DNA from: an uncultured Candidatus Saccharibacteria bacterium
GTDB lineage: Bacteria; Patescibacteriota; Dojkabacteria; SC72
Length of the DNA: 48,917 nt
Direction of reading: 5' to 3'
Assembly: GCA_964655705.1 (NCBI GenBank)
Contig: CAZZPP010000001.1
Location: forward strand, 9,207 to 58,123
The position numbers and the translations under genes were made by a program. Under the pieces are notes generated by a model. It was given only the letters and a program-made list of their open reading frames with translations, did no database searches and had not been told where the DNA came from. Every line of letters begins with the position of its first letter. The stretch's first letter is position 1. Shown here piece after piece: positions 1-40,704 of the stretch.

Positions 1-2022
1 TGGTCATGTACAGGTGGTACTTTGATTGAAAATGTGATAACTCTAACTTCTGAAGACGATGTAACATGTACAATCACTAATACTGCACAACCAGCAACAG
101 TAGTTGTTTACAAGAATGTTGTTGATTGGAACGGAAGTGAAGCATATTCTGATCAGGAGTTTGAAGTGATACTTGAAGGAAAGCTTTTGGTACCTTCTCA
201 GAATATTAGAGATTCAGAATTAGAACCAATGGTAGCTACTTTTGGTTTGCTAGATGCAGGAATATATACACCAACTGAAATAAATGTACCTGATGGATAC
301 ATATTTAATGAATGTTCTGTATATAGGCCTGTATTGAGTGATACAGAAATGTCAGCTATGTCCGTTCGTCCAACCAATTATGTAGGTAATGGAGAAACAC
401 TTGCATTTGTATGTGAGAACGAAGCAATACAACCAGAGTTAACTATCACAAAAGATAATGATAGTCCCATCTCAGGATTAGAAACAGGAAGTACAGTACT
501 TTACACATTAAGAATTGAAGCTCCATCTAATGAAACAGAAGGAACATATCTTGTTAACAATGTAAAAGTAACTGACATATTACCTGAAGGATTTGGATAT
601 GTAGCAGGTAGCTGGACAGCAGTATCCTCAGTTAGAGGAGATCTTAAAGCATTAAATATAACTAACCAACCAACATATAATGGCTCTCCTGCAACCTGGA
701 TACTAGGAAAAATGGTAGAAGGAGAAGTAATAACTCTAACATATGTTGCTAAAATTAACCTTCTTAATGAACCAGGAACATATAAAGATCTGGCATATGT
801 ACAAGGAGATTCCATACTAGCAGTATTAGATACTGGAGATGTATTAGGTCTAAGTTATAACGGAGGATATACACTTACTGAAACATTTGGAAAAAACTTC
901 GTAGGAACAAGAGTATTAATAATTGAACCAATAGAAGATGGAGGAGAAGTATTAGGAGCATCTATTACCTTACCAGTTACAGGTGCAGATACATATATAA
1001 CATTAGGAGCATTAATATCTATGATATTAGGATTTGTATTAATACTGTTTGGAAAGAAAAGAAAAATAGGGACTCTCTTTGTAGCCCTTGTAATCTCTCT
1101 TGGGTTGTTTACATTGTTAAAACCAATTGAAACATATGCCCAAACTCAAACACAAGTAAGTATTAGGTTAGAACAACCTAAAACAGGAATAACAGATAAA
1201 GAGTTTGAAATAACATATGTAGCTCTATCCATACCAGCACAACCATTAACAATACAATGTAAATACTCAACAGATGAGAATACCTGGGTTGATTTTGATA
1301 CTCCTAAAACAGCAAACAGTGATAGCTGTAGGGTAAATGAAACCGTAATTACTGGAAGCGGAACATACTACTTTAAAGTTGTTGCATCAACTACAGGTGG
1401 AGGAGCAGATTCTCAAGTAGTAAGTGTAGATATAATAGGGAACCCCTTACCAGTAACAGAGTACTCAAAAACAGAAGGAACATGTACATATACTCTTAAA
1501 TTTAAATCAACTACATCTAAAGTACAAATATATAGATCAGACAATCAGAAATCCTTCTATGCAGATGATACAACCTTAATAACCAAACCATCCCTTTCTG
1601 TTACACCTAACGTATTAACAACATATACAGACTCTAGTATTACAGACTGCTCTAAAGATTACTACTACGCAATTAGGTCCATAGATGACTACAACAATGT
1701 ATCTACCTTAGTAACAGATGACATTGTTACCATTGTAAGAACACCAGCCCCAATAACACCAACTACTCCAACTGAAATAACAGATGATGAAGGTGAAGTT
1801 GAAGGAGACGAAACAGCAATTGATGAAGAAGAAAAGGAAGATGAAAAAGAGGAAGGAGATGTTAAAGGAGATGAGGATACAGATTCTGAAAATGGAGAAG
1901 AAGACCAGGAAGATGAGAATAGTATTAAATCAATATGGGATGAATACAGATATTTAATTATCGCAATGGTAGTGGTAGCATTAGGAAGTGGAGTATACAA
2001 CTATGTCAGAAGAAAAAAGTAA
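1..2022 (+). CDS. 5'-truncated multidomain surface protein: pilin/SpaA-like repeat end, DUF11-like domain, internal LPVTG+TM+KKRK sorting signal, second signal peptide, FN3/Ig-like region, acidic linker, C-terminal TM
   Basis: Frame is open from base 1 (WSCTGGTLIEN..DVTCTITN). DUF11-like pattern LTITK..TVLYTLRI..VKVTDILPEGF.YV.GS. LPVTG at 970-984. D/E-rich stretch near 1785-1920. Ends in a hydrophobic helix plus RRKK. Confidence 0.8.
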   Translation, partial: WSCTGGTLIENVITLTSEDDVTCTITNTAQPATVVVYKNVVDWNGSEAYSDQEFEVILEGKLLVPSQNIRDSELEPMVATFGLLDAGIYTPTEINVPDGYIFNECSVYRPVLSDTEMSAMSVRPTNYVGNGETLAFVCENEAIQPELTITKDNDSPISGLETGSTVLYTLRIEAPSNETEGTYLVNNVKVTDILPEGFGYVAGSWTAVSSVRGDLKALNITNQPTYNGSPATWILGKMVEGEVITLTYVAKINLLNEPGTYKDLAYVQGDSILAVLDTGDVLGLSYNGGYTLTETFGKNFVGTRVLIIEPIEDGGEVLGASITLPVTGADTYITLGALISMILGFVLILFGKKRKIGTLFVALVISLGLFTLLKPIETYAQTQTQVSIRLEQPKTGITDKEFEITYVALSIPAQPLTIQCKYSTDENTWVDFDTPKTANSDSCRVNETVITGSGTYYFKVVASTTGGGADSQVVSVDIIGNPLPVTEYSKTEGTCTYTLKFKSTTSKVQIYRSDNQKSFYADDTTLITKPSLSVTPNVLTTYTDSSITDCSKDYYYAIRSIDDYNNVSTLVTDDIVTIVRTPAPITPTTPTEITDDEGEVEGDETAIDEEEKEDEKEEGDVKGDEDTDSENGEEDQEDENSIKSIWDEYRYLIIAMVVVALGSGVYNYVRRKK

Positions 2023-2668
2023 GAAATCTAAAGCAGGATACATAAAATATATAGGTATCCTGCTCCTTCTCCTTGGTTTGGGAATTCTGTACTATACATT
2101 TCAACCATTTATCTCTTCATATCTTGATTATAAATTAACCCCTGAACCGCAAAAAGAGATTAAGATTGAACTAACCAAGGGAGATGAAGAGATTACTACT
2201 GAGATTAAGAAGGATACAGAAGTAGTATTTGTTAATAGTGAATTCGGTCTTTACATTCCAAAAATACAAGCAAATGCGAAAGTAATAAAAAATATTGACC
2301 CATACGATTACGATGCATACCGTAATGCATTAATATATGGAGTAGTACATGCGAAAGGTAGTGCACTCCCTTCTGAACCTGGAAATGTATTTCTTTTTGC
2401 TCATTCTACAGTAAACTTCTATGAAAGAAGAAAATACAATGTATATTTTTACCTTCTAGGAGAATTAGAAAAAGATGATCCAATATATGTAAGCTATCAA
2501 GGGGGAATGTATAAATACAAGGTATTAGAGTTCAAAGTTGTAAAACCTGAAGAGATTCAATATATGGGTGAATATTTAGATCAAGATACTCTTACTCTAA
2601 TGACCTGTTGGCCAGTAGGATCAAATAGTAAAAGAGCAATAGTTACAGCTATACGGGATTTAGAGTAA
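2003..2668 (+). CDS. Sortase (first paralog)
   Basis: N-terminal TM anchor; catalytic His (FLFAHS), Cys (TLMTCWP) and Arg (KRAIVTA). ATG 2003 preferred to GTG 1988; overlaps the upstream stop. Confidence 0.92.
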   Translation: MSEEKSKKSKAGYIKYIGILLLLLGLGILYYTFQPFISSYLDYKLTPEPQKEIKIELTKGDEEITTEIKKDTEVVFVNSEFGLYIPKIQANAKVIKNIDPYDYDAYRNALIYGVVHAKGSALPSEPGNVFLFAHSTVNFYERRKYNVYFYLLGELEKDDPIYVSYQGGMYKYKVLEFKVVKPEEIQYMGEYLDQDTLTLMTCWPVGSNSKRAIVTAIRDLE

Positions 2669-4808: not shown

Positions 4809-6404
4809 ATGAAGGGTAATTTCTTAAAAGAGTTACAGATTGCTACCGTACAATCTGAATCTAATTGGAATCATTTTAAAGTTCACACTCTTCTACAAAA
4901 CTGTCATCAGAAACAACCCTCAATTAATGCTTACCTTGGAGCAAGATATAGTAGATCTAGTGATAGTATTGTTGATATTGCAAAAGAAATTATTCAAAAC
5001 AATACAGATGCAGCACAAAGACTAGAAGCAATATTCCATGGGTATGGTCATAAATCAGTAGGAGATATGGCAGAGCTTTTTGTATGTATAGAGAATATCC
5101 CAATGTATACAGCTATGAGAATTTTCTACCTTAATTCCGTTATCTCTGGTCAAGAGAGATCTACAAGATATCAAAATTTTAAAGATCCTCAATATATAAA
5201 AATTCCTAAAGAGGTTTGTAGCGATGAGAACATTAGAAAGGAGTATGAATCAATAATATTAAAACAGATGAACGACTATTCCTCTCTTTTAGAGAAAACA
5301 AAAGTATATCTCAAAGAATATTTCCATATTGATGAGGAGATTAAAGAAGAAAAATCTGTTCTTCAAGCTAGAAGTTTTGATACTGCTAGGTATCTATTAC
5401 CTTATGGATTACAAACGAGTATGGCAGCAGTGATGTCTGCAAGAAATTGGTCTGAACTAATTTCCTATCTTCATGCTAGTGACAATGTTGTAGAAAATGA
5501 AATTGGTAAACTACTTTACAATCTCTTGGGTGAATCTAAGATAGATATTAATGGATATATTAGAGAAGCAGATGGACTAATTAGGCATACTGATGCTAAC
5601 TGTTGTAGAAGAAATTCAACTAATGAGATATTAGAATATATATCTAAAGGAGTATTCCCACAAAAGGAGTATGAAAATATGGGTTGTGAGTGTGATTCTT
5701 GTAGTGTTAGTTTTCATACCAATACTACTGAGAATCTCGTAACTAACTATGAATTACTTCTTAATCCATTAGGTAGTACTAATGAGTATGAATTTGATCA
5801 AGAGGATTGTAAGGAGATCGGGGGAATTATATTTGAGAATCATAATCAGCACAATTTAATGGGAAATATTGGACAGAGTGGTGCTATTAAAATAGAGGGA
5901 ATGGCTACATTAGGAACACTTAAAGATTTAAATAGGCATAGAAGTTTAGAAAGATATATTCCTCTATTTCATGATCAAATAAATATAGATAACGAATTAG
6001 ATAGGGATAATGAAGATTGCTTCTTCCTATGCAACTATCTCGAGATTCCTAAACTAAAAGAGTTAAGGAAAGAGTATGAGAATTGTTTGAAAGATACATA
6101 TGATTTGATAAAAAAGTGGAGAAAAGTCTCATCTCAGTTTATGTCCGATGAAGTATCAAAAGAGTATACTAAGTATTTACTACCCCATGCACATTCCACA
6201 AAGTATATCTTCTATGGTTCCTTTGATGATTTGCAGTACACAATTAATCTGAGGAGTAGAAGAGGTGGACATATCTCATACCGAAGTTTAGTGTATAGGT
6301 GGTTGGAACTATTAAACAGTGAAGAGAGTATATGGTATCCTTTATTGAATAGTATTGAGTCCCCAGACCCTAGTTCTAGGGAGCAGTTTCTAGATAGAAG
6401 TTAA
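4809..6404 (+). CDS. thyX: FAD-dependent thymidylate synthase, long two-domain form
   Basis: ARYSRS, GYGHKSV, QERSTRY in domain 1; DLNRHRS and YTINLRS in domain 2; context folD-glyA-dcd. Confidence 0.88.
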   Translation: MKGNFLKELQIATVQSESNWNHFKVHTLLQNCHQKQPSINAYLGARYSRSSDSIVDIAKEIIQNNTDAAQRLEAIFHGYGHKSVGDMAELFVCIENIPMYTAMRIFYLNSVISGQERSTRYQNFKDPQYIKIPKEVCSDENIRKEYESIILKQMNDYSSLLEKTKVYLKEYFHIDEEIKEEKSVLQARSFDTARYLLPYGLQTSMAAVMSARNWSELISYLHASDNVVENEIGKLLYNLLGESKIDINGYIREADGLIRHTDANCCRRNSTNEILEYISKGVFPQKEYENMGCECDSCSVSFHTNTTENLVTNYELLLNPLGSTNEYEFDQEDCKEIGGIIFENHNQHNLMGNIGQSGAIKIEGMATLGTLKDLNRHRSLERYIPLFHDQINIDNELDRDNEDCFFLCNYLEIPKLKELRKEYENCLKDTYDLIKKWRKVSSQFMSDEVSKEYTKYLLPHAHSTKYIFYGSFDDLQYTINLRSRRGGHISYRSLVYRWLELLNSEESIWYPLLNSIESPDPSSREQFLDRS

Positions 6405-8291: not shown

Positions 8292-8364
8292 TATATATCA
8301 TAATCATATGTTTTATCTATGTTATAGGTCAGGAATCTGTGCCTCTAATATGATATATTTTGAT

Positions 8365-9459
8365 ATGGATTACTCAAATGACAATGGGATGATTGCTGAA
8401 ATAGTAGAGTTAGGAAATAAACTCTCTTCTTCTAATACGCCTGTTGAATTAAAAGAACAGGTTATGCGTACCATACAAAGACTTGAGAGAATGGCTAAAT
8501 GGGGTAGCTATAGTTCTGAATTTGAGAGTGTAGATAAATATGTTGATTGGGTAACAAGAATACCTTGGGGAGTAGTTTCTGAAGACAATTTAGATATTAA
8601 GAATGCAAAAGAGCTCTTAGATTCTACTCACTATGGAATAGAAACAGTAAAGGAGATGATATTGGACTATATTGCAGCTATGCAATTAAAGAAGTTGGTT
8701 AAAGGGAAAGATAGTGTTGAAAAAACTCCTACTACTCCAACATTACTTTTCCTAGGTCTTCAGGGTATTGGTAAGACAACTATTGCTCAATCAATAGCAA
8801 AGGCTATGGGTAGGAAGTTTGCTAGAATATCTTTAGGTGCAGTCGGTGATGTAAGAACTCTAAGAGGTGTTCCTAGGCATGAGATAGATTCAGAACCTGG
8901 TCAAGTTATTAAGGCATTAGTAAGAACAGGTACTATGAATCCCGTTATATTGGTAGATGAAATTGAAAAGTCTAGTCAAAACAAGGGTGTCTTAAATGAT
9001 ATTATGGCTGCCCTTTTAGAAATCTTAGATCCTGAACAGAATTCTACTTTTGTAGACCACTATATTGATCATCCAGTAGATCTTTCTCAAGTCTTTTTCA
9101 TTTGTACAGCAAACAACTTAGGAGGGCTATCTGCTGCATTACTAGACAGATTAGAGGTAATCCGTTTTACTAGTTACAATGATCAAGAAAAAGAAGTTAT
9201 TGCAAAACAATATATTCTCCCTAAGGTTTTTGCTAGTATGGGATTGTCTGCTGAATATCTTCAGATATCTCAAGAGGTATGGCCACTTTTAATTAGGCCT
9301 GTTGGTTTTGATGCAGGAATACGTCAATTAGAAAGGAATATCTCTACGTTAGCCAGAAGTGCTGCTAGAGAGATTGTAAGTGGTAAGAGAATACCTGTTG
9401 TAATTACTCCTGAGAACTTAAAGCAGTATGTACTACCTGATCAGGGACCCCTAAGTTAG
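8365..9459 (+). CDS. Lon-family AAA+ ATPase lacking the C-terminal protease domain
   Basis: Lon-like W...IPW, L...HYG...VKE, Walker A GLQGIGKT, Walker B ILVDEIEK, ALLEILDPEQN, TAN, LLDRLE. Stop follows the lid helices. Start 8365 chosen because TG-A-TATATT lies 5 nt upstream (track start 8308). Confidence 0.85.
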   Translation: MDYSNDNGMIAEIVELGNKLSSSNTPVELKEQVMRTIQRLERMAKWGSYSSEFESVDKYVDWVTRIPWGVVSEDNLDIKNAKELLDSTHYGIETVKEMILDYIAAMQLKKLVKGKDSVEKTPTTPTLLFLGLQGIGKTTIAQSIAKAMGRKFARISLGAVGDVRTLRGVPRHEIDSEPGQVIKALVRTGTMNPVILVDEIEKSSQNKGVLNDIMAALLEILDPEQNSTFVDHYIDHPVDLSQVFFICTANNLGGLSAALLDRLEVIRFTSYNDQEKEVIAKQYILPKVFASMGLSAEYLQISQEVWPLLIRPVGFDAGIRQLERNISTLARSAAREIVSGKRIPVVITPENLKQYVLPDQGPLS

Positions 9460-9662
9460 ACTCCTCTAAATGGGTTTACTAATCTTAATGCTTTCTTTGC
9501 TCTATCTAGTGAAGGCTCAAAAGAAATTTTCTGGGTACTAGGTTTTACTGTTTTAACATTAGGATTATTTGTTAGAGGAATATTAGATGGTAGAACAGAG
9601 GAATCTGTTGTTGCATTGTATTGATATATTACCTTTCTATTGTTGTTTTGGTTGTTGTTCAT
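9456..9662 (-). CDS. Possible 68-aa small protein downstream of virB4-like gene
   Basis: Fills the 9460-9636 gap; its stop overlaps the convergent Lon-like stop (TTAG); codon choice resembles neighbouring minus-strand genes; no recognisable domain. Confidence 0.4.
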   Translation of the reverse strand: MNNNQNNNRKVIYQYNATTDSSVLPSNIPLTNNPNVKTVKPSTQKISFEPSLDRAKKALRLVNPFRGV

Positions 9663-12012
9663 TCTCATCTCCTATCATACCTTGAGGAGTAATATGTGCT
9701 CTACCCCTTTGTATATCCTGTCTTTCTTTTACTACCTGTCCAGGGACAGTGTTTTCCTGAATTAATTGATTTACACTTTTCTGAGAAGCGTATTTCTCAG
9801 GATTTAATTCTCTTTCTTGTTCAACTAATTTCTTCTTAAGTTCTTCTTGGTACCTTATCCTTTCATCCTTGATTACTTCGATATCTTCTTTTCTCTTACC
9901 AACAGCTCTCTCGATTAGGTCTCTGTTTTTAGAAGTCTCTGTCGATATTTGACTTTGAGTAGCAGGTGCATCAAAGATTGCAGAGAGTTCTTCAATTGTT
10001 CTTTTATCTATACTTACCTTGTTAATTCCTCTTCTTTCAATTTCTCTTGGATCTGAAGTAATTAATTCATTCTCTTGAACACTAGAGAGTACCTGGATTG
10101 CCACATGATTCTGTCCAGCAAAGAAAAGGCCTTGTCCCTTCTCACAGTTAAGTAAGAATACCCTCTCTCCATCGGAGAGATGAAAGGTAGGTTGTAAAAC
10201 ATCTAAAGCAGAGGGACTTTGCATCATGAGCATAGACATGGAAGCATTTTGAATAATGGCTCTACCCATATCATTGTTTAGGAAATCTGCAACATCTTGT
10301 GTAATGGTAGTCAGACCAAGGTAGTATTTCCTCGCTCTTTTAGCAATTGAATACATAAATCTAGCAGAGTCCTCCCTTTGCATCATATACCAGGCCTCAT
10401 CCACGATTAGAAGTCTTCTTTTCTTGTTTTTACGTATAACTGTCCATATGAAGTCTAACATTAGATACATGGCTAGAGGTTTCAATTCTTCCTGTAGATC
10501 TCTTACACTGAATACGGTAAAAGGATTTTTAATTTCAAAGTTGGTTGCCTCGTTAAATACTCCTGCACCACTACCAATTATAAATCTCTCCATTCTTCTT
10601 GCTAGGTTATGTGCTTCATCTTCAGCCATACCTTTAAGAACCTTATACAAGTCTTCTAACATTGGTGGAGAATTCTTTTGAGTTGCTGGGTCATATGTAA
10701 TACCTTTCTCTCTGTATGCTAGTATTATTGCCCTATCTAGTATAGATACCTCTACACTTGTTAATCCATCAAACATTACTTTGAAAAACCCTAATAGTGA
10801 TTGACTCTTTATTCTTAACTCATCTTCCCCCTCTTCAAAGACACCTGAGAGTTCAAATGGATTCATCTTGTCTCCTTTGTCTTGAGAGAAGGAAATATAT
10901 GATCCACCAACTGCTCTGGAGAGGTCTTCATACTCTCTTTCTGGATCAATAATTATTACATCTGTACCTAACATTAGACTACGAAGAGCCTCAAGTTTAA
11001 CAAAGTAGCTTTTACCTGCTCCTGATTTAGCGAATACAACAGCATTTGCATTCTCTAATTCAAACCTATCAAATATTACTAAACTCTTGTTATGCATATT
11101 AATCCCATACATTATTCCATGATCCATAGTTAACTCAGAAGTAACAAATGGGAATGTTGTAGCTAGAGATGTTGTATCCATATTCCTAGTTACATACAGT
11201 TTGTCTAGTCCCAGTGGTTGTGTACTTATGAATCCCTGTTCTTGTTGTAGAGTAGCTGATTTAGCTGTAACACTAATTGCAGCTAATGTAGATACTACAT
11301 TACGACTATATTTTTCTAAAAGATCTTTGGTAGGGGCATATATTGTAATGTACATTGTAAAATGAAAAAACTTCTCGGTACCCTCTGCAATTGAATCCTG
11401 AAGTTGCTGTGCATCAGAAAGTGCTACCTTAACAGAAGCATCAATTACCTTCCTGTCCTCCATCTGTCCATATATTGTAGCTTCCATTTCAGCTATCTTC
11501 TTTCTCAATTTCTCTAAAATGACTTTAGAATCTACAGGGTAGTAGAAAGTACTTATTCGAAGAGAATGCTCAAAGTTAATGATTGGGGATAGCCAATTAG
11601 GTCCTACAAACCTAGGATATCCACTTACAAAGAAAGTTCTAAAGTAGTAATCCCCCATTTGAAGAGTATTGAAATCTACTTCAATATCTATGGGAGCAAT
11701 TACATCCTGAGTGGTTAATCCATCATACTTAGCTATATTCGGTTCTTTTACAACTACTGGCTGTACTTTCTGTTTAGGCATTAACATATCTAAAAGTTTA
11801 AACAATGGATTCTTCTTCTCTTTCTTTTCATCTTCCTTAACTTCGTTGAATCTCTCCTTTTCTCCAGTAACAGGCTCGCTCTTCTTCTGTTGTATATCAG
11901 CAATATCTTTTGCCAAATCTTCTTTGAAAGATGCAAACTTATCTCCAGAGATGGTACTCTGTTTCTCTTCTAGCATTTCCATTGTTTTTGATTTAAATTT
12001 GTTCTCTTCCAT
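9637..12012 (-). CDS. VirB4/TraC/TcpF-like type IV secretion ATPase
   Basis: Walker A AKSGAGKS, IIIDPEREY, MNPFEL, Walker B LIVDEAW, RARKY, TITQDVADFL; T(S)LAT.FPF upstream of the ATPase domain. Confidence 0.9.
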   Translation of the reverse strand: MEENKFKSKTMEMLEEKQSTISGDKFASFKEDLAKDIADIQQKKSEPVTGEKERFNEVKEDEKKEKKNPLFKLLDMLMPKQKVQPVVVKEPNIAKYDGLTTQDVIAPIDIEVDFNTLQMGDYYFRTFFVSGYPRFVGPNWLSPIINFEHSLRISTFYYPVDSKVILEKLRKKIAEMEATIYGQMEDRKVIDASVKVALSDAQQLQDSIAEGTEKFFHFTMYITIYAPTKDLLEKYSRNVVSTLAAISVTAKSATLQQEQGFISTQPLGLDKLYVTRNMDTTSLATTFPFVTSELTMDHGIMYGINMHNKSLVIFDRFELENANAVVFAKSGAGKSYFVKLEALRSLMLGTDVIIIDPEREYEDLSRAVGGSYISFSQDKGDKMNPFELSGVFEEGEDELRIKSQSLLGFFKVMFDGLTSVEVSILDRAIILAYREKGITYDPATQKNSPPMLEDLYKVLKGMAEDEAHNLARRMERFIIGSGAGVFNEATNFEIKNPFTVFSVRDLQEELKPLAMYLMLDFIWTVIRKNKKRRLLIVDEAWYMMQREDSARFMYSIAKRARKYYLGLTTITQDVADFLNNDMGRAIIQNASMSMLMMQSPSALDVLQPTFHLSDGERVFLLNCEKGQGLFFAGQNHVAIQVLSSVQENELITSDPREIERRGINKVSIDKRTIEELSAIFDAPATQSQISTETSKNRDLIERAVGKRKEDIEVIKDERIRYQEELKKKLVEQERELNPEKYASQKSVNQLIQENTVPGQVVKERQDIQRGRAHITPQGMIGDENEQQPKQQ

Positions 12013-12016
12013 TTCT

Positions 12017-12658
12017 CTATGTCATCTCTTCCTCTGGATTATATATTGTGTAAACCTCAGTAAGGAGTTCTTTGTTAGTTAGTTGTTTCCCTGTAAGCCC
12101 CATACGAGACAACTGTTTTAAAATATGATCTCTTTTGGGATAGAGAAATATCTTAGCTTTCTCTACAAGTTGTTCTTGTTTCATACTCTGATTTCTAGCA
12201 ACCTCCTCTTTACTCTTCTTTGATTTAAGAAGATTAGAAGTAGGGATATCTCCCCCAGGGTTGAAAGGTATTACAAGAAAGAAGTTTTTGTCTAACACAT
12301 CATTTTCTATAATTAGACGCTGAATGAATTCGGTATATATATGTAATTGGTTCTTTAATCCCTCTGTCATAGCCTTATTCTCTTGATTTTTAAGATAGTC
12401 TACATAATTAGAGATATCTATTCTCCTAGTACGTATTAATATCTGTATGTGAAAGTTTAAAGAGTTTAGTAGGCCAGCAAATGCAAAAACCTTACTATCT
12501 TGTTCATATTCAGCAAGTAAATCAAAGTTAATAGCGGATGTCTGGATTATAATAGCGACACTCCCACTTTGAGTAATTACTAAATCATCAACAATATCCC
12601 TTATCTCTAAGTGTTCTTGCGTAGATGAAGTTGTTCTTGCCCTTGCATTTGTATCCAT
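12017..12658 (-). CDS. TraC-like accessory protein of CPR-type T4SS locus
   Basis: QEHLEIRDIVDDLVI, AINFDLL..EQ....AF..LLNSLNF.IQILI, KNFFLVIP pattern; lies between PrgI and VirB4 and is translationally coupled. Confidence 0.65.
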   Translation of the reverse strand: MDTNARARTTSSTQEHLEIRDIVDDLVITQSGSVAIIIQTSAINFDLLAEYEQDSKVFAFAGLLNSLNFHIQILIRTRRIDISNYVDYLKNQENKAMTEGLKNQLHIYTEFIQRLIIENDVLDKNFFLVIPFNPGGDIPTSNLLKSKKSKEEVARNQSMKQEQLVEKAKIFLYPKRDHILKQLSRMGLTGKQLTNKELLTEVYTIYNPEEEMT

Positions 12659-13488
12659 TATTGTATTGTAATTTTATATGGCAATTTACCCATATTCTTT
12701 GTTAAAACAATCTGTATGGAGGGTATACTAAAAGGTACTCCTTCGAATTGTATATTATATATTCCTTCAGGATACTCTTTGTTTGTTAAAAAGTAACCAT
12801 TCTTACCAGTCTTATTTGCATACAAAATCTTCTCATTATTATCCTTGAGGTATGTTTTAATATCAGATACAGGTTGATTATCTTTTGTACTGAGCCATAT
12901 ATTAATATTTCCAGGGAGTCTATCAACACTTTTAATATCAAACTGGTACTTAGATATATTTTCTTCATTAATGATAATGGGTTGGGGAGTATCAAGTTCA
13001 AGATGTTCCTCCTCCTGATCCTTAACTATATTACTTTTAACTATTTCTCCATTGCCCTCTTCAAACATATCATCACCTTGATCTTCAGTAAAAATATCCT
13101 TCCCCTCTTCCTTGACCTTAGAACCACCAAAAATCTTTTGGTTCTTCTTCTCAGGTTGTACTGAGGGTTTAATCCTTTGCTCTTTAAGTGCACTATTTAA
13201 CCATACTCTTTGAGTAGGCCTATTAATCGCAGAAAAGAAATTAGATATGAATCTGTCTGCAGGTTGATCATTAATTGGAACAAGAGCAAAGAATACTCCT
13301 AGACCAGAAAATAGCAAGAACATGGGTACCCCTATAACCCCAGGGAATTGTCCTTTAGTTGTGAAGTAGAGAAATACTCCTCCGATACTTACACCAATTG
13401 CAAGATATGCAAACTCTTTTAATGTAAACTTAGTAAAAAGTTTAAACTCCACATCTAAGATATTTTGTGGTATAGGGTGTTGTCTCAT
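12658..13488 (-). CDS. PrgI (VirB3-like) membrane protein with C-terminal beta-sandwich extension
   Basis: QHPIPQNI..VEFKL...FTLKEF.YL start, two TM helices, PIN.QP.D.FI.NF; stop/start overlap with the next gene. Confidence 0.75.
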   Translation of the reverse strand: MRQHPIPQNILDVEFKLFTKFTLKEFAYLAIGVSIGGVFLYFTTKGQFPGVIGVPMFLLFSGLGVFFALVPINDQPADRFISNFFSAINRPTQRVWLNSALKEQRIKPSVQPEKKNQKIFGGSKVKEEGKDIFTEDQGDDMFEEGNGEIVKSNIVKDQEEEHLELDTPQPIIINEENISKYQFDIKSVDRLPGNINIWLSTKDNQPVSDIKTYLKDNNEKILYANKTGKNGYFLTNKEYPEGIYNIQFEGVPFSIPSIQIVLTKNMGKLPYKITIQ

Positions 13489-13550
13489 ATATGTACTATC
13501 TAGTTTATCAGAATTAAAGGAAATAGGGGAGATATATTTAATATATTCAG

Positions 13551-14624
13551 TTATACTCCATTGAGATGTATTAATTGAGCATCTTTAACAATTCCCTTAG
13601 GTAGTGATTTGTAATCTATCACAGTTAGAAAGGTTTGTTGCTTGTCTAACACCTTTTTGTTAAATATTTTCTTTGTATTTAATATATCTAATTCAGAAGC
13701 TATATCATCGAGTAGAAGAATTGGGTAATGGGAAGTCTTCTTAAAAACAATCTCTTGTATCTCAAATATTAATTTCCCTATGGCTAACCTTTTTTCACCC
13801 CTAGAACCAAATTTCCTGATATCTCTGTCTTCAAATATATCCCAGTCATCTCTATGTGGTCCGACATTTGTGTATCCTGTAGCAATATCCCTCTTTTTAC
13901 TTAATTCTAATTCCTTATGTATACACTCCTTAAGGTATTCAATATTATGAATCTTTCTTCTATCGAAATTAATATCTGTTTTGTACTTAACCTCGTATTC
14001 ATTTTGTGAGAGTTCTTTAGTAAGTAATATCCTTTTTTGTAAGATATATGCTGATGTAAGACAGAAGTGATTACTCCAGAAGTTTAACTGAGTATCATTT
14101 AGAGCAATTATGCCTTTCTCATAGAAAAGTTTAGAAAGTTTTTTTAGATATGCATTTCTTTGTTTCAAGATCTTTTTAAAATCTTTAATCAAAGTATCAT
14201 ATTCATAGTCATATTTGAGTATAGTGGTATCTAGAAAATTTCTTCTTTCTGAAGGAGATATCATAAGGAGTTCTATTTTCTCTGGATTAAAGATATTTGC
14301 AGACCTATTCTGAAAGAAAGTTATTGCTCTTGTATTATTACCCTCTATCTTTAGATTCTTTCTGTTATTATCTTTAAAATATACATATGATCTACCATCT
14401 TCAATACTCTCTATACGGGTATGAACTTGAGAGATCTGTTCAATGTTAATGTATTCGTTTGTAGTGGCCCAGGGTGATTGTCCCGTACTTATCAAGTACA
14501 ATGCCTCTAATACAGAACTTTTACCTTGAGCATTGTGTCCATAGAAGACAGTAAGATTTTTTTTAAATTCAAAGGAGGTATTTTTGAATTTCCTGAAGTT
14601 TTGTAGTAATAATTTCTCAATCAT
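13551..14624 (-). CDS. recF: DNA replication/repair protein RecF
   Basis: QNFRKF, GHNAQGKS, P.ERRNFLD, GPHRDD, GSRGEKR, PILLLDDI.SELD. Confidence 0.93.
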   Translation of the reverse strand: MIEKLLLQNFRKFKNTSFEFKKNLTVFYGHNAQGKSSVLEALYLISTGQSPWATTNEYINIEQISQVHTRIESIEDGRSYVYFKDNNRKNLKIEGNNTRAITFFQNRSANIFNPEKIELLMISPSERRNFLDTTILKYDYEYDTLIKDFKKILKQRNAYLKKLSKLFYEKGIIALNDTQLNFWSNHFCLTSAYILQKRILLTKELSQNEYEVKYKTDINFDRRKIHNIEYLKECIHKELELSKKRDIATGYTNVGPHRDDWDIFEDRDIRKFGSRGEKRLAIGKLIFEIQEIVFKKTSHYPILLLDDIASELDILNTKKIFNKKVLDKQQTFLTVIDYKSLPKGIVKDAQLIHLNGV

Positions 14625-16447
14625 TATGTTTTTAATATACTTAAGAATGCCTCCTGGGGGATATTTACTTGTCCAATCTGTTTTAATCTCTTCTTACCCT
14701 TCTTCTGTTTCTCTAGTAATTTTAATCGTCTTGTATAATCTCCTCCATACAGTTTCGCTGTAACATCTTTGCGAAAGCCCTTTACATCTTGCCTTGCAAT
14801 AATCTTTGCCCCTATGGCTGCTTGAAGTGGAATAGGGAACTGTTGTCTTGGTATCTCTCCTTTCATTACTTCAAGTAGTCTAGATGCTTTAGTTTGTGCT
14901 AATTCTCGTGTTTCCAAAAAACTTAATGCAGGTATCTCTTCATGATTAACTAATACTGAGACTTTTACTAAATCTACGGGGAAGAAATCAATTAATTCAT
15001 ACTCCATAGAGGCGTAGCCACTTGATTGGTTTTTAAGTAAATCAAAAAAGTTAGATACTAAAGATGCTAGAGGTATATCGTACTCCAATACTATGTATTG
15101 GTCTTTTAATTGTATATCTCCAGAGGTATTAGACATGTACTTAGTATTTACATATACTCCCCTTTTGTATTGACACAACTCCATTAGGGGTCCCATATAC
15201 CTATCTGGTGTCATTATCTTTAGTCTTACCCAAGGTTCAAATATTTCAGATATCTCAGAGGGATCTGGTAGTTCTTGGGGTGTCTGTATATCAATCTTTG
15301 TACCATCTGTTCTAGTTACTTTGTATTCAACCGTTGGTGCAGTAATTATTAAATCTACGTCATACTCTCTTTCTAATCTCTCTTGAACTATCTCCATATG
15401 TAGTAAGCCTAAGAAACCACATCTAAATCCTGAACCCAGTAAGTTAGATCGTTGATCTGAGAATGTTAGGGCTGCATCATTCATACTTAATTTGTTTAAT
15501 CCAATTTTTAATGGCTCATACTCATCTGTAGTTATCGGGAAGAAAGTAGCATATACATTTGGTTTAGGGATTTTGTATCCCTCAAGAGGTTGGGTTAGTT
15601 TACTGTCTGATATTGTATCTCCAACTGTAAACATACTGATATTTTTGAATCCTGTTGCAATATATCCAACCTCTCCTGTACTAAGTTGTGTAGTCTCCTC
15701 TAAATCTGGTTTAAATATTCCTACCTCTGTTGGTTTAAAGCTCTCTCCCTTTTGTAAGATATGTAGGTCAACAGATTTCCCAGGTATATACATTACGCAG
15801 CCTTCAAACACCCTTACGGCAACAACTACCCCTCTATGTTCATCATAGAAGGAATCAAAAATGAGGGCTTTTAGTGGCTTACTAAAATCTCCCTTTGGAG
15901 GTGGGCATCTTTCAACAATTGCATCTAAGAGTTGTTCTACTCCTTCCCCGCTTTTGCCAGATACTTTTATAATTTCTTCTTTCTTAAATCCCAAGAGTTG
16001 AATTAATTCCTCTTCTCTTTCTTGAATATTAATATTAGGTAAATCTATTTTGTTTATTACTGGTATTAAGGTAAGACCCAGTTCTAGCGCTTTTTGGGTG
16101 TTTGATATTGTTTGAGCTTGAATACCTTGTGATGCATCTACTAAAAGTATTGCTGCTTCGCATGCAGCCAGTGATCTAGATACTTCGTAAGAGAAATCTA
16201 CATGACCAGGAGTATCTATTAGGTTTAATTCTGTTTCCTTCCACATCATCCTACAAGCCTGCAGTTTAATTGTAATACCTTTCTCTTGTTCTAATTCTAA
16301 TCTATCAAGTATTCGTGATTCCCTCTTGTCTCTTGAGATATCAATGTGTGCAGCCTCTAACATCCTGTCTGCTAAAGTTGATTTTCCATGATCTATATGA
16401 GCGATGATGGAAAAGTTCCTAATTTTATTTAAATCAGTTTTACCCAT
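14624..16447 (-). CDS. lepA: Elongation factor 4 (LepA)
   Basis: IRNFSIIAHIDHGKSTLADR, DTPGHVDF, GFRCGFLGLLH, RKDVTAKLYGGD. Confidence 0.98.
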   Translation of the reverse strand: MGKTDLNKIRNFSIIAHIDHGKSTLADRMLEAAHIDISRDKRESRILDRLELEQEKGITIKLQACRMMWKETELNLIDTPGHVDFSYEVSRSLAACEAAILLVDASQGIQAQTISNTQKALELGLTLIPVINKIDLPNINIQEREEELIQLLGFKKEEIIKVSGKSGEGVEQLLDAIVERCPPPKGDFSKPLKALIFDSFYDEHRGVVVAVRVFEGCVMYIPGKSVDLHILQKGESFKPTEVGIFKPDLEETTQLSTGEVGYIATGFKNISMFTVGDTISDSKLTQPLEGYKIPKPNVYATFFPITTDEYEPLKIGLNKLSMNDAALTFSDQRSNLLGSGFRCGFLGLLHMEIVQERLEREYDVDLIITAPTVEYKVTRTDGTKIDIQTPQELPDPSEISEIFEPWVRLKIMTPDRYMGPLMELCQYKRGVYVNTKYMSNTSGDIQLKDQYIVLEYDIPLASLVSNFFDLLKNQSSGYASMEYELIDFFPVDLVKVSVLVNHEEIPALSFLETRELAQTKASRLLEVMKGEIPRQQFPIPLQAAIGAKIIARQDVKGFRKDVTAKLYGGDYTRRLKLLEKQKKGKKRLKQIGQVNIPQEAFLSILKT

Positions 16448-16494
16448 AGAATACGGGTAATTATATTATATTTATGATGAGAAAAGATATATAT

Positions 16495-17049
16495 TTACTG
16501 AATCTCTTTAATATCTAGTTGGAAGTCCTCATTAAACCTGACATTAGAGAAACTCTCAATAGCGAGATATACAACATATTTCTCCTTAGGAATTAAAAGA
16601 ATCTTTTGTGCAGTTATATCCCCATTAGGACTTTGAATTCTATATACCTGATCATTGATGATTAATGAGATATTGGAACGGGTAGGTATATTGGTATTTC
16701 CATATATCTCTAGTTTAATCTCATCATTTTTGTTATTAGTTATCTCTAATATGGGTTTAGAGTACCTATCCGCATCCCTATTCTCTATGGTGGTTGTATA
16801 CCTATATACCCCCTGTTCATCTTGTTCAAGTCTTTCTCTACTAAATATTTGATGACTACCTCCAACTATCTGTATATCTAATTCTGCCTTTTCACTTACA
16901 CCTAATACATCAATTTCTTTTAGAGCTTTAGTTAAAGGTTCTAAATTCATAACGGTGATTGTTGGTATTATGAAGAGTAGGGCAAGTAAGCCAAGAGCTA
17001 TTGGTTCAATTACTAAGGTAAGAAATTTTTTAAACTTTTGATTTTTCAT
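16495..17049 (-). CDS. Membrane-anchored beta-rich hypothetical protein
   Basis: N-terminal TM followed by DVLGVS motif; stop/start overlap with the upstream gene. Confidence 0.7.
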   Translation of the reverse strand: MKNQKFKKFLTLVIEPIALGLLALLFIIPTITVMNLEPLTKALKEIDVLGVSEKAELDIQIVGGSHQIFSRERLEQDEQGVYRYTTTIENRDADRYSKPILEITNNKNDEIKLEIYGNTNIPTRSNISLIINDQVYRIQSPNGDITAQKILLIPKEKYVVYLAIESFSNVRFNEDFQLDIKEIQ

Positions 17050-17597
17050 TAGTAGTACTTCTTACTATCAGGATATACCTTACTAACTTGAATTTCAAAT
17101 GATTTAAGTGCTCCTAAACCACAAAGCAGTGAAACTACCCCTGATATATATGCAATCCATTGATATGTATCTCCTTCAATTGCATTTTTAATAATTAATC
17201 CACTACATAGCCAGAGGAATACACACCAAATGAAGATTTGAAGAAAGGTAGTATCATCCTTTGTAATCCATTTAAGAGCATTGAACTTAGTAACCTTTAC
17301 AATCGTTTTAGGATTTTGTAGGGTAGATTGAAACAGTAAAGTCTTAAGTATTTGATATATCGTAGGTACTGCTATTACTAAAAGCATCAGTAAATCGGAT
17401 ATTGAATTCACAAAGTAGGTAATTTGAGCATCATCGAAATATATCTGTGTAGAAAAGAAACCATTAATATCGTTTCCTATCTCCAATGGGTATCCATATT
17501 TTGCAGAGATTAAAAATATTCCGAGTGTTTTACCAGCAATCATTAATATCGCTGGAACTATGGAATTTTTAAGAGCTCTTTTGAGTAGTTTTGACAT
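17049..17597 (-). CDS. Integral membrane hypothetical protein (about 4 TM)
   Basis: Four hydrophobic segments; co-oriented between rpsT and 16495-17049. Confidence 0.72.
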   Translation of the reverse strand: MSKLLKRALKNSIVPAILMIAGKTLGIFLISAKYGYPLEIGNDINGFFSTQIYFDDAQITYFVNSISDLLMLLVIAVPTIYQILKTLLFQSTLQNPKTIVKVTKFNALKWITKDDTTFLQIFIWCVFLWLCSGLIIKNAIEGDTYQWIAYISGVVSLLCGLGALKSFEIQVSKVYPDSKKYY

Positions 17598-17865
17598 TAT
17601 CTTTGGATAGTTTGTTTAGTTGAATTGCAAGCCTTGATTTTTTACGACTTGCCTTACCCTTTTTAATGACATTCTTCTTAGCAGCTTTGTCAAGGACTTT
17701 GAAAGTCTGATTAAGTGATTTCTCAGCCTTCTCTTTGTCACCTTCTTTGATGCTATCTCTGAAATTCTTTTCAGACCTTTTTACTCTGTTTCTAAGTCTG
17801 TCATTAAAAGTACTTTTTCTTTTACTACTTCTTAAATCTTTTATTGATGTTTTTAAGTTTGGCAT
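17569..17865 (-). CDS. rpsT: 30S ribosomal protein S20
   Basis: MPNLKTSIK.LR, LDKAAKKNVIKK.KASR.KSRL. Confidence 0.95.
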   Translation of the reverse strand: MPNLKTSIKDLRSSKRKSTFNDRLRNRVKRSEKNFRDSIKEGDKEKAEKSLNQTFKVLDKAAKKNVIKKGKASRKKSRLAIQLNKLSKDNVKTTQKSS

Positions 17866-17966
17866 CGTGATATATATATTATTAAATGTATGATAACTGT
17901 GCTGTATTATATATACTAGAATGGTGTTTGTAAACAGAATATTTTATTGATACACTATAACTAGAT

Positions 17967-18365
17967 ATGATTAATACTAAAAAGGTACTTCTCATTACCC
18001 TTCTAATTGTAATCCCACTTGTTGCTTTGATATCATCTGGGTATTTAATATTCTTTAAACAAGATTCAGAAGTTAAGGGAGTAACTACTAAAGAAAAGGG
18101 TTGTGTACCATATATTGTAAATACAATACCAAGAGTTGCATATGTTGGAGAGGAATACCACTTCTTTCCAAGAGTATCTGGATGTCAGGTAGAAGAGATT
18201 GAGGTGAGAGGAGTAGGATGGTTAAATGTTGATAGTGATATGGGTATTTCGGGTATTCCCAAAAAGGAAGATATTGGAACTTTTAAGATTGAGATATATA
18301 CTCGTAGTAGTACGGATAGTTATGTGCTCAAAGATTACATAATCGTTAAAGAGAATGAGAAATAA
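17967..18365 (+). CDS. Small membrane-anchored protein with putative Ig (He_PIG/cadherin-like) domain
   Basis: N-terminal TM, SEVKGV, then P..AYVGEEY.F..GWL......ISG.P...D.G.F.I.I. Confidence 0.7.
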   Translation: MINTKKVLLITLLIVIPLVALISSGYLIFFKQDSEVKGVTTKEKGCVPYIVNTIPRVAYVGEEYHFFPRVSGCQVEEIEVRGVGWLNVDSDMGISGIPKKEDIGTFKIEIYTRSSTDSYVLKDYIIVKENEK

Positions 18366-29497: not shown

Positions 29498-30292
29498 TTA
29501 TATTCTTTCTGCTACTACAATCAGTCTCTTTATACCGGCACCTAAAGGCCAACAGGTCATTAATGTTACAGTTTCTTTGTCTCCTTGACTTCTTAAGATG
29601 GTAAAATCATCTGCATCTACAATCTTCTTGTTTCTAACAACATATTCGAAAATCTCCTCCTCCTTTTTGATTTCTACTACATCTCCAATGTCTACATCCT
29701 CGAGTTTTGTAAATATGGTCTCAGGTAGATTGGAGTGTTTACTAAAGAAACTTAAAACAGCGCTATGACCATATATGAAGGAGTTACCACCATCACCAGG
29801 AAGAGGTGTTCCCCTGAAATGTGCCAAACCATATTTCAAATATCTGTCATATACTTCCTCCTGAGAGCTCTCTACATTAGGGGTAATTCTTACGGTATCA
29901 ATCCCAACCTCTGAAATTGAGAGGTACATATTTTTACTGTATGACTTGTCTACAACAATTTCCTTTGTACTCTTTGTCTCTGGATCGTAAGTAAAGAGAC
30001 CTTGGTATTCCAAATTTTCGGCGTTCTCTGAAAGATTCTCAAAATAGCTTTTACCTGGGTCGTAGTAAGCAAATTCATTCTCAATATATTCTTTGTATGA
30101 TTCAGGTACAGGATCTTTCATTAGATCTTGCTTTGAAAGTTGAATTTCACCTTGTATATATGAGATTAGAAGAGGAATGGATTGGCTTAAGAGAATTGTT
30201 ACTCCTACAATCCCTAGTATCCAAGAGATACTTTTTTTGGTATCTGCTATTTTCTTCTCACTTACTTTTTTAACTTGTATATCATTATCCAT
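29498..30292 (-). CDS. Sortase (second paralog, with longer stalk)
   Basis: TM; GLAHF.GT.LPG..GNS.I.GHS, TLMTCWP, KRLIVVA. ATG 30292 preferred to TTG 30313. Confidence 0.92.
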   Translation of the reverse strand: MDNDIQVKKVSEKKIADTKKSISWILGIVGVTILLSQSIPLLISYIQGEIQLSKQDLMKDPVPESYKEYIENEFAYYDPGKSYFENLSENAENLEYQGLFTYDPETKSTKEIVVDKSYSKNMYLSISEVGIDTVRITPNVESSQEEVYDRYLKYGLAHFRGTPLPGDGGNSFIYGHSAVLSFFSKHSNLPETIFTKLEDVDIGDVVEIKKEEEIFEYVVRNKKIVDADDFTILRSQGDKETVTLMTCWPLGAGIKRLIVVAERI

Positions 30293-30335
30293 GGGTAAAA
30301 TATATATTACCAATATTGGGTTTTAAAGTCACATG

Positions 30336-39056: not shown

Positions 39057-39094
39057 TTGATATTGTTCCTACTACTTAGTATTATGGATAAATG
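39057..39094 (+). promoter_or_regulatory. Promoter for the 39092-47403 cluster (leaderless-type)
   Basis: TTGATA-17-TATTAT, 6 nt, ATG. Confidence 0.62.
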
Positions 39095-40696
39095 AATTTA
39101 ACTCCACATCAGAAGAGACAGTTGAGGTTTGTAATAGTACTTGTTATTGGTATACCTTTAACAGTATTTGCCCTTTACAAAGGGGTCCAACTTTTAATAA
39201 ATGCAAGTGGAGATGCTACACCTCAAGAGGTTGTGGTATCAAATCTTACTACTAGTTCTTTGACTGTAAGTTGGGTAACCGAGAAGGCTGTTGATGGTTA
39301 TGTTATTCCTGTCTTAAATGGTACAGAACAAAATCCCGTATTAGACAAGAGAGGCAGTGGAAAGAGAGAATCTCACTATGTAGTATTGAAGAGTTTAGAG
39401 CCTTCTTCAGAGTACTCCTTTATACTGGTTTCAGATAATGAGAAATATACACAGGGTAGTAGTGGTACTTACAAGTTTACTACTGCTCCCATAGGGGAGG
39501 ATACTCCTGTTCCTAACCCAGTGTATGGTACTGTAACTGGTTCAAATGCACAGGAATCCATTATATATGTAATGTTTAAAGACAAAAGTGTATACCCAGT
39601 ATCTACTGATGTACCTGAGAATGGTAATTGGATTGTAGAACTTTCATCTTTTAGGAGTATATCTGATATGGGTTTAATTAGAACAACAGATAGTACACAG
39701 TTAATAGTAATTGCAAGAAATGGTTTGAATCAAGCTGGTGTAATAGAGGGTAGCTATTCTGAACTTTTTAACAAAAGTGGTCAATTAAATAGTGATTTGG
39801 TATTAGCAGATGTGGCAGTTAACGAAATTACTTCGTATTTCCCTAACCAAACATTACTAGGGAATGCATCAGTAACACCTGATCCTGTACCACAGCCGGA
39901 ACCACAAGCAAAACCAACTCCTAAACCAGTTCCGTCTGTACCAATCTCTACTAAATATATTGTTAGACAGGATGTTCCTTGGGAGGATTTAAGTAATGCT
40001 AGGGTTGGGACCCTAGATCTTACTACTGGTGAAGATAGTGTAGTCATTGTTAACTTAACAGATACCAACTTCGTAGTTGCATGGAGGTCAAGAGAAAAAG
40101 AACAAGGATATATTAAATATGGGCTATCTAAAGAGGTGTTAGATAGTGAAATGAAAGATTCAAGAGATTCTCTAACAGTTAAGGGCGATTATTATTCCCA
40201 CTATATTGAAAGTGGAAGACTAAAACCAGATACAACATATTACTTTGAAATATATTCTGGTGATAGTAAATATGATAATAATGGGAGTAAGTATACCATT
40301 ACTACGTACTCAACACTCTCCTCTGCTCCACCTCTTGATACTCGTGGTGGTACCTTAATTAATTCCTCTGATCCTTCTGATTGGGTCTTGGTATTTCAAC
40401 TAATTGATAATGATGGTGTTGGTACATCTGATTCTTCTGGATATATTGCTACAATACCAGATTTGGATGGGTCTTGGATACTAGTTGTCGGTGATGCTAG
40501 GAGTTCTGATGGTTCATCATACTTCACCTTCTCTCAAGATGATATCTTACAAGCCTCTTTCTTAGGAGCTCAGGGAAACACCTTTGATTTTAATCTAGGA
40601 CAGAATGATATACAATTAGATGTTAGTAAATTAGGTGGTGGAGTAAGAACAAGAGTTGATTTACTCACAGATTATGGAATAGTTGATTTACAATAG
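39092..40696 (+). CDS. Membrane-anchored protein with two tandem FN3-like plus beta-sandwich modules
   Basis: Repeated V.V.NLT...V.W..SHY....L.P...Y.F.I.S...KY and G.W.....RS motifs; Pro-rich linker. Confidence 0.78.
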   Translation: MNLTPHQKRQLRFVIVLVIGIPLTVFALYKGVQLLINASGDATPQEVVVSNLTTSSLTVSWVTEKAVDGYVIPVLNGTEQNPVLDKRGSGKRESHYVVLKSLEPSSEYSFILVSDNEKYTQGSSGTYKFTTAPIGEDTPVPNPVYGTVTGSNAQESIIYVMFKDKSVYPVSTDVPENGNWIVELSSFRSISDMGLIRTTDSTQLIVIARNGLNQAGVIEGSYSELFNKSGQLNSDLVLADVAVNEITSYFPNQTLLGNASVTPDPVPQPEPQAKPTPKPVPSVPISTKYIVRQDVPWEDLSNARVGTLDLTTGEDSVVIVNLTDTNFVVAWRSREKEQGYIKYGLSKEVLDSEMKDSRDSLTVKGDYYSHYIESGRLKPDTTYYFEIYSGDSKYDNNGSKYTITTYSTLSSAPPLDTRGGTLINSSDPSDWVLVFQLIDNDGVGTSDSSGYIATIPDLDGSWILVVGDARSSDGSSYFTFSQDDILQASFLGAQGNTFDFNLGQNDIQLDVSKLGGGVRTRVDLLTDYGIVDLQ

Positions 40697-40704
40697 GGTA
40701 ATCT

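Follow-up and report, generated by a model that had tools for sequence, protein, structure and literature searches.

Why should genes homologous to parts of a Gram-positive conjugation machine stand among the housekeeping genes of a bacterial chromosome? The question is raised by three genes, prgI, trsD and virB4, that occupy positions 9637-13488 of a 48,917-nucleotide stretch of contig CAZZPP010000001.1 (positions 9,207 to 58,123 of the forward strand; assembly GCA_964655705.1). The stretch comes from an uncultured bacterium deposited as Candidatus Saccharibacteria and placed by the Genome Taxonomy Database (GTDB) in the Dojkabacteria (SC72). The whole stretch is called the window below, and all coordinates refer to it. 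We propose, with a probability of about 80%, that the trio is the energizing cytoplasmic-membrane core of a chromosomal, non-conjugative type IV secretion system (T4SS) of the Patescibacteria, here in a Dojkabacteria (WS6) genome. The proposal agrees with a preliminary description of the window, made from the letters, which took the trio for a domesticated chromosomal secretion system rather than an integrative and conjugative element (ICE).

As that description noted, T4SS-like genes have been published from the Patescibacteria (Quinonero-Coronel et al. 2025, Microb Genom, PMC12102498; Wang et al. 2023, Cell, PMC10633639). VirB4 occurs in 2,417 of 3,035 Patescibacteria genomes, in a dataset that includes Dojkabacteria and whose preprint names them; the Patescibacteria proteins form a monophyletic clade nested in MPF_FATA, and the closest VirB4 relative is in the same class in 99.3% of cases (PMC12102498). 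TrsD is the most abundant partner of VirB4, and TrsD and VirB3/PrgI are mostly encoded adjacent to virB4; VirD4-like genes lie far from virB4 in many Patescibacteria, relaxases were found in only 103 genomes, and the authors concluded that a chromosomal system had been co-opted for a non-conjugative role (PMC12102498). In Southlakia epibionticum, the T4SS cluster is essential for epibiotic growth by transposon sequencing (Tn-seq); it is like Gram-positive conjugative systems and has pilins, without a recognizable coupling protein or relaxase (PMC10633639). A 2025 review gives the same picture. A relaxase-less chromosomal VirB3-TrsD-VirB4 system is therefore already published across the Patescibacteria, and the window holds no new kind of system. 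The points added here are the idea of a split VirB4, an extended VirB3 homologue, a surface cluster with weak candidates for further parts, metatranscriptome contigs across both gene junctions of the trio, and the compact context seen in this class.

The three genes and their arrangement

The trio runs head to tail on the minus strand, from prgI (12658-13488) through trsD (12017-12658) to virB4 (9637-12012). The TAA of prgI and the ATG of trsD overlap as TAATG, and the TAG of trsD is followed after a 4-nt gap by the ATG of virB4, which bears out the tight coupling noted in the preliminary description. The PrgI and VirB4 module at 9637-13488 was likewise recovered, with all three open reading frames (ORFs) in place and the family models passed for both proteins. 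The middle gene had been called TraC-like. TraC is the VirB4 of F-type systems, and the label is loosely defensible in that sense; the precise label is TrsD/TraD-like, and TraC in the pIP501 sense does not apply.

The virB4 product is a 791-aa ATPase of the MPF_FATA (CD1110) type. It passed NCBIfam model NF045971 ('VirB4-like conjugal transfer ATPase, CD1110 family') with 404 bits against a cut-off of 325, matched the Pfam families P-loop_TraG, AAA_10 and DUF87, and matched the solved VirB4 C-terminal domain in the Protein Data Bank (PDB entry 4ag5) at E=3.5e-49. Both nucleotide-binding motifs appear intact by eye in the translation: Walker A (AKSGAGKS, residues 328-335; 11008-11031, minus strand) lies in a block that is 89% conserved among 78 orthologues, and Walker B (LLIVDEAW, residues 534-541; 10390-10413, minus strand) in one that is 85% conserved. 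Residues 1-100 are variable and of low complexity, residues 120-640 make up a highly conserved core, and the tail that ends the protein (650-791) is charged.

In Gram-positive systems, PrgI takes the place of VirB3. The PrgI/VirB3-like membrane protein of the window (276 aa), encoded two genes upstream of virB4, passed Pfam model PF12666 with 31 bits against a cut-off of 27; the match spans residues 5-94 (13207-13476, minus strand) and includes two predicted transmembrane (TM) helices, at residues 26-44 and 51-69. Directly upstream of virB4 lies the gene for the TrsD/TraD-like protein, which has 213 aa, lacks a TM helix and is predicted to be soluble; its matches are weak singly and consistent at family level, as set out below.

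The trio was described as lying between recF-lepA and a Lon-like gene, and ORF coordinates and Pfam matches identify the same flanks. Upstream are recF (13551-14624, minus strand) and lepA (14624-16447, minus strand); downstream, convergent with virB4, is a Lon-like AAA+ gene (8308-9459, plus strand), whose product corresponds to no more of Lon than its AAA+ module and lid (TIGR00763 positions 256-567 of 795) and lacks both the N-terminal substrate domain and the protease domain. The convergent ends also enclose a 70-aa ORF (9456-9668, minus strand) that shares 32 nt with the 3' end of virB4 and 4 nt with the stop of the Lon-like gene. Its translation is Asn/Pro-rich and matches no family, it was seen only in 8 close relatives at 42-57% identity, and it is doubtful as a gene.

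Conservation of the locus and probable vertical descent

Relatives were collected by a VirB4 scan of one genome per GTDB species, which found 187, and the best 80 (58-85% VirB4 identity) were compared. Nearly all of the 80 are metagenome-assembled genomes labelled Candidatus Dojkabacteria, WS6 or another Patescibacteria group, and a few are unclassified. The window sequence itself was found in DNA runs from wastewater, bioreactor and sludge metagenomes. Gene order was counted by tblastn of all window proteins against the 80 loci (+/-10 kb).

Nearly all of these loci share the order rpsT-lepA-recF-prgI-trsD-virB4-lon-csd-dcd-thyX-glyA-folD, in which the Lon-like gene, csd, dcd, thyX, glyA and folD stand on the strand opposite to the trio. 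The fuller conserved order upstream comprises holA, genes for a 578-aa surface protein and an fn3 protein, rpsT, genes for two small membrane proteins, lepA and recF. Among the 80 loci, trsD was counted in 77, prgI in 71 and recF in 61, and the Lon-like gene, which was counted in 71, adjoins virB4 in 71; the shortfall in flanking genes falls largely on loci cut by short contigs. An ABC transporter lies between virB4 and the Lon-like gene in the most distant loci, and in the most divergent ones the housekeeping neighbors differ while the trio is intact and alone. Across the class, the trio keeps a fixed place among housekeeping genes, and it evolves under strong constraint.

The degree of this constraint can be gauged against LepA. 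In 48 genomes, pairwise VirB4 distances correlated with LepA distances (r=0.69), a value reached by none of 2000 Mantel permutations, and the mean p-distances were 0.26 for VirB4 and 0.25 for LepA. The ATPase core is 80-95% identical to that of the window VirB4 across the class, and TrsD identity ranges from 54 to 86%; the best non-Patescibacteria VirB4 matches in a plasmid collection reach 35-39% identity. By these distances VirB4 matches LepA in conservation and the two diverge together, which fits vertical descent. The preliminary description had named a VirB4 tree incongruent with vertical descent as evidence that would speak against domestication, and such incongruence was not seen in the comparison with LepA distances.

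Mobility functions

Homology of VirB4, TrsD and PrgI to parts of the Gram-positive conjugation machine, together with the presence of relaxases in a minority of Patescibacteria genomes (PMC12102498), makes it necessary to ask whether the trio belongs to, or is left over from, an ICE or another mobile element that transfers DNA. Relaxase and VirD4 genes were sought in the 49-kb window, which is part of a contig of ~179 kb, and in the +/-10 kb around virB4 of the relatives. When all main ORFs in the window were scanned with Pfam, no relaxase, no integrase and no coupling protein of the VirD4/TcpA type was found (no T4SS-DNA_transf, TraG-D_C or TrwB match). The window has no tRNA gene, and a search for att-like or bracketing repeats around the trio yielded only short, imperfect repeats at chance level. 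Judged by shared gene content, no relaxase occurs in the +/-10 kb of the 80 relatives, and none was found in sampled insertions. Where extra DNA separates recF from prgI or virB4 from the Lon-like gene in relatives, it encodes an EamA transporter, an inositol monophosphatase, a hydrolase, nucleotidyltransferases, NUDIX proteins and ABC transporters, and the insertions checked held no hidden T4SS or mobility genes. GC content, GC at third codon positions (GC3) and codon usage of the trio lie within the spread of the other window genes.

The signs by which a conjugative element would be recognized (a relaxase; a coupling protein; an integrase, att site or tRNA gene) are thus all lacking in the window, and among relatives the trio is not patchily distributed but fixed in position in all comparable loci. 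An origin in a mobile element also fits poorly with an identical chromosomal position in ~80 species, with native composition and with a VirB4 that is conserved like LepA, and a decaying remnant would not retain such identity over the ATPase core. We therefore consider an ICE or its remnant highly improbable. Conserved order, LepA-like divergence, native composition and the absence of mobility features together support a domesticated system; the absence of mobility genes and the neighbor-like composition had both been noted in the preliminary description, and both hold. A larger element flanked by a relaxase and an integrase was not found within the 49-kb view. For annotation pipelines, a VirB4 match in such genomes should not be scored as an ICE.

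Transcription

The trio probably belongs to one transcription unit with rpsT, lepA and recF. The genes upstream of the trio (rpsT, two small membrane protein genes, lepA and recF; 13551-17865, minus strand; ORF coordinates, Pfam matches and conserved order) are packed with it through overlaps or gaps of at most 62 nt. Among promoter-like sites on the minus strand in 9000-18200, the best (17934-17906, 11 of 12 matches) precedes rpsT, and nothing resembling a terminator was seen from recF to prgI. Metatranscriptome contigs from anaerobic digesters match parts of virB4, trsD, prgI and neighboring genes at 99-100% identity, and pieces of them cover the trsD/virB4 (11821-12044) and prgI/trsD (12498-12712) junctions, which suggests that the trio is expressed and co-transcribed. 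The two small membrane proteins encoded between rpsT and lepA (16495-17597, minus strand), of 184 aa with one TM helix and 182 aa with three, have no assigned family; they are present in 50-52 of the 80 loci, on the same strand as the trio.

An extended PrgI and a possible split VirB4

At 276 aa, the PrgI-like protein is about three times as long as a plain PrgI domain. In the conservation profile of 67 orthologues, residues 1-100 and 165-276 are conserved and residues 100-165 are variable; the variable, acidic linker leads into a conserved C-terminal domain of ~110 aa (residues ~165-276; 12661-12996, minus strand). This extension is probably an Ig-like or CarboxypepD_reg-like β sandwich. Single-sequence searches with it gave sub-threshold matches only: CarboxypepD_reg at E=1e-4, below its cut-off, for an orthologue (L079), and weak SdrD_B matches (E=0.02-0.09) for the window protein.

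The TrsD-like protein has no match in the copy of Pfam that was scanned. It matched the NCBIfam TrsD/TraD model (NF041427) at E=1e-7 with 32 bits, against a curated cut-off of 200, and the N-terminal part of the Mycoplasma ICE VirB4 model (VirB4_plasma, positions 101-233) at E=2e-6. By sequence it is a distant TrsD/TraD homologue and, by the NCBI criterion, not a member of that family. A HMMER scan of 1.84 billion representative proteins gave 1520 clusters of relatives (685 at E<=1e-10), in most of which the homologous region is N-terminal and is followed by variable tails. Among 47 diverse relatives, the VirB4_plasma N-terminus was matched by 47, TrsD/TraD by 46 and CD1110 VirB4 by 23, all of these matches being far below the curated cut-offs. 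Some TrsD relatives (P0121-P0240) bear a precomputed Pfam label, PF26593, an accession that could not be resolved to a name.

The places at which these matches fall suggest a relation between TrsD and VirB4. On the VirB4_plasma model (894 positions), TrsD relatives cover positions ~97-287 and the window VirB4 covers 292-892; on the CD1110 model (752 positions), the corresponding spans are ~2-180 and 124-734. Since these coordinates are complementary, the two proteins together tile a one-piece Gram-positive VirB4, which suggests that TrsD corresponds to the N-terminal segment of such a protein and that TrsD and VirB4 form a split ATPase. Where the one-piece protein has the missing segment, the window VirB4 has its variable low-complexity stretch, residues 1-100. 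Aligned with each other by hhalign, class-level alignments of TrsD and VirB4, both of low diversity (Neff ~2), gave no mutual similarity, and the two would therefore be complementary pieces rather than paralogues or products of duplication. The gene order (VirB3, VirB4 N-terminal piece, VirB4) is also colinear with the seat of VirB3 on the N-terminal side of VirB4. That TrsD is a detached N-terminal piece of VirB4 is thereby a testable idea.

Candidates for the remaining components

About 30 kb from the trio, a conserved six-gene surface and cell-wall cluster (39092-48639, plus strand) encodes an fn3 surface protein, a 453-aa Cys-rich protein, a 494-aa polytopic protein, a 1126-aa CHAP protein, a protein of 164 aa that spans the membrane once, and a secreted protein of 392 aa that faintly matches amidase and SH3 families. 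Apart from the fn3 and CHAP domains, no confident family match was obtained in the cluster. It is kept in relative L082, where rsmE and a UvrD/PcrA helicase gene mark its limits and no VirD4 lies inside.

The 494-aa protein (42097-43581, plus strand) is a weak candidate for a VirB6-like channel component. It has several predicted TM segments and no Pfam or NCBIfam match. A Foldseek search with its AlphaFold2 model (pLDDT 66) gave TrwI/VirB6 chains of R388 the first three places and six of the first ten (E 0.03-0.9), the best being 7o3v_G (E=0.03, probability 0.97, TM-scores 0.19/0.30). The adjoining gene (43593-46973, plus strand) encodes the 1126-aa protein, in which a long helical N-terminal part and two TM helices (655-700) precede a C-terminal CHAP domain (Pfam, 36 bits against a cut-off of 26); its link to the T4SS, as a VirB1-like cell-wall hydrolase, is conjectural. 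Visual inspection of the same protein suggested an M23-like motif, HxxxD...HLH, which was unsupported by Pfam and was discarded. By tblastn, neither protein had a match in 72,556 plasmids.

From these observations, one may tentatively picture a dispersed, pared-down T4SS, in which a split VirB4 sits on a β-domain VirB3, the core genes are co-transcribed with rpsT-lepA-recF, and the channel and wall parts come from unrecognized families encoded ~30 kb away; we hold this fuller picture to be possible and distinctly less probable than the identity of the core.

Proposed function

In the mechanism that we propose, the PrgI/VirB3-like protein would tether TrsD and the VirB4 ATPase to the membrane, in the way that VirB3 holds VirB4 in T4SSs of known structure, and TrsD would provide the N-terminal segment that is absent from the shortened VirB4. 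The ATPase, presumably as a hexamer, would power the assembly of a channel or pilus and the transfer of macromolecules at the site of contact with a host that is itself a bacterium. The remaining parts (a VirB6-like channel protein, a wall hydrolase, pilins and any coupling protein) would be encoded elsewhere, the weak VirB6-like and hydrolase candidates at 42.1-47.0 kb possibly among them. Such a system most likely serves a host-dependent lifestyle and not DNA conjugation, by analogy with S. epibionticum, whose T4SS genes are essential for epibiotic growth.

A machine built on a VirB4-like ATPase might also work inwards, taking up nucleic acids or other macromolecules of the host, like the archaeal Ced system or ComB of H. 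pylori, and so feed an organism that is unable to make nucleotides. Archaeal DNA importers use VirB4-like ATPases, which were included in the 2025 phylogeny (PMC12102498), and a 2026 preprint on another Patescibacteria parasite describes the acquisition of host RNA, together with tubular structures, possibly T4SS pili. The window, with neither relaxase nor coupling protein for DNA export, would suit such a role. The window VirB4 does match the CedB DNA import model, but with 58 bits it stays far below the cut-off of 700, whereas the conjugation-type CD1110 model is passed. In S. epibionticum, loss of comEC ended DNA uptake and left viability unaffected while the T4SS remained essential, so that there the T4SS is not needed for transformation. 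No feature of the sequence indicates a direction of transport, be it export of effectors or import. Import, with the nutritional role attached to it, is in our view unlikely.

Assembly of a surface filament or adhesin is the other role to be weighed, the trio then building only a VirB2-like pilus for attachment to the host, with no substrate translocated. Known T4SSs need VirB4 to make their pili, and T4SS loci of Patescibacteria commonly carry arrays of VirB2-like pilins, which are essential there. However, no VirB2-like gene could be detected in the window, where the intergenic space is too small for an array; the pilins may lie elsewhere. We judge a purely pilus-building role to be rather improbable.

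The assignment of the trio to the core of a non-conjugative T4SS has to be set against several observations that tell against it or weaken it. No match to hidden Markov models (HMMs) for VirB6, VirB8, VirB2, VirB1 or VirD4 was found anywhere in the window, and the absence of relaxase and VirD4 genes covers only 49 kb of the ~179-kb contig. The TrsD-like protein and its relatives, which reach at most ~45 bits, stay well short of membership in NF041427. An AlphaFold2 model of TrsD, built with 35 close homologues, was unusable (pLDDT 41), and PDB sequences gave no match either to the single protein or to a profile of 47 relatives, so the split of VirB4 is argued from profile coordinates only. The fold match of the VirB6-like candidate is weak, with TM-scores to TrwI/VirB6 of only 0.14-0.36. 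The metatranscriptome contigs are assembled, of low depth and without strand information, and may reflect DNA carry-over. Lastly, the function is read from homology and from one cultured species of Saccharibacteria. To our knowledge, no member of the Dojkabacteria has been cultured.

The T4SS of Patescibacteria is the first type IV system without which its carrier reportedly cannot survive. The window shows its minimal invariant unit (a VirB3-like protein, TrsD and VirB4) by itself, at a fixed place in a probable housekeeping operon across the class, and so helps to define which parts are indispensable. In the fuller picture drawn above, if the genome has no VirD4, the system would be a T4SS independent of a coupling protein, and its substrate could be host-derived material rather than DNA.

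Other genes of the window

On the far side of the Lon-like gene, the folD-glyA-thyX-dcd string (dTMP synthesis) is kept beside the T4SS core in most relatives. Its thyX-like member (4809-6404, plus strand) encodes a protein of 531 aa, about twice the usual length, with two Thy1 stretches. At the start of the window, a DUF11 surface-protein ORF (22-2022, plus strand) contains an internal LPVTG motif followed by a TM helix and KKRK, after which the frame stays open through another hydrophobic, signal-like stretch and a long region rich in Thr and acidic residues. Next to this ORF comes a sortase gene (1988-2668, plus strand), and a second one lies at 29498-30313.

Comparison with known systems

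The VirB-type complexes of R388 and Agrobacterium (7o3v, 7o41, 8rtd) share with the trio the fold of the VirB4 ATPase, R388 TrwK giving a weak sequence match (E=0.01), and the logic by which VirB3 anchors VirB4. They differ in having genes for the VirB7/9/10 outer-membrane core, VirB11, VirD4 and VirB5, none of which was found in the window. The window organism is a monoderm.

The order TrsC-TrsD-TrsE is familiar from conjugative plasmids of the pGO1/pSK41/pIP501 type. A plasmid of Peribacillus frigoritolerans (NZ_OY970401, with an annotated trsD) has the same order of small TM protein, TrsD and VirB4, and likewise combines a TrsD piece with a shortened ATPase, of 657 aa compared with 791 aa in the window. 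TrsD of this plasmid type shares only ~31% identity with the window protein, over half of the protein. The Peribacillus block reads pilin, small TM protein, TrsD, VirB4, lysozyme, VirD4 and TrbL/VirB6, whereas no lysozyme, VirD4-like coupling protein or TrbL/VirB6 gene is adjacent to the Dojkabacteria trio.

In the plasmid collection, a megaplasmid of Pontibacillus sp. ALD_SL1 (NZ_CP062975.1, 352-361 kb) carries the best TrsD match together with one of the VirB4 relatives that come closest from outside the Patescibacteria. There, too, a TrsD-like gene (30% identity over 97% of the query) is directly upstream of a CD1110-family virB4 (36% over 71%), within the order pilin-like protein, 779-aa protein, 116-aa protein, TrsD-like protein, VirB4 and 1050-aa M23 hydrolase. 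Unlike the trio, the Pontibacillus pair is flanked by the pilin-like gene, the gene for the 779-aa protein and the M23 hydrolase gene. Pairwise and profile comparisons of the PrgI-like, 494-aa and 1126-aa proteins with the products of the genes flanking virB4 in Pontibacillus gave nothing significant. The replicon (0.9 Mb) is typed as non-mobilizable in PLSDB, the T4SS-like locus (351.8-361.4 kb) lies beside flagellar genes, and no relaxase or VirD4 is annotated within 14 kb of it. This locus may be another co-opted T4SS, in a member of the Bacillota.

Compared with the T4SS of other Patescibacteria, the Dojkabacteria locus differs in its layout. It holds the three-gene core only, inside the rpsT-lepA-recF string of translation and repair genes and convergent with the Lon AAA+ gene, whereas the neighbors are dnaA/dnaN in Paceibacteria and Microgenomatia and comF/recG/radA in ABY1 (PMC12102498). 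S. epibionticum has a 14-gene cluster (SEML1_0006-0019), whereas the trio has no pilin array, VirB6 or hydrolase gene adjoining it. What is probably an additional C-terminal β domain sets the PrgI-like protein apart from those described for the Patescibacteria clade. In other respects the trio resembles that clade: it is chromosomal, its VirB4 is derived from MPF_FATA and is encoded beside PrgI/VirB3 and TrsD homologues with no relaxase or coupling protein nearby, and it has apparently been inherited within the class.

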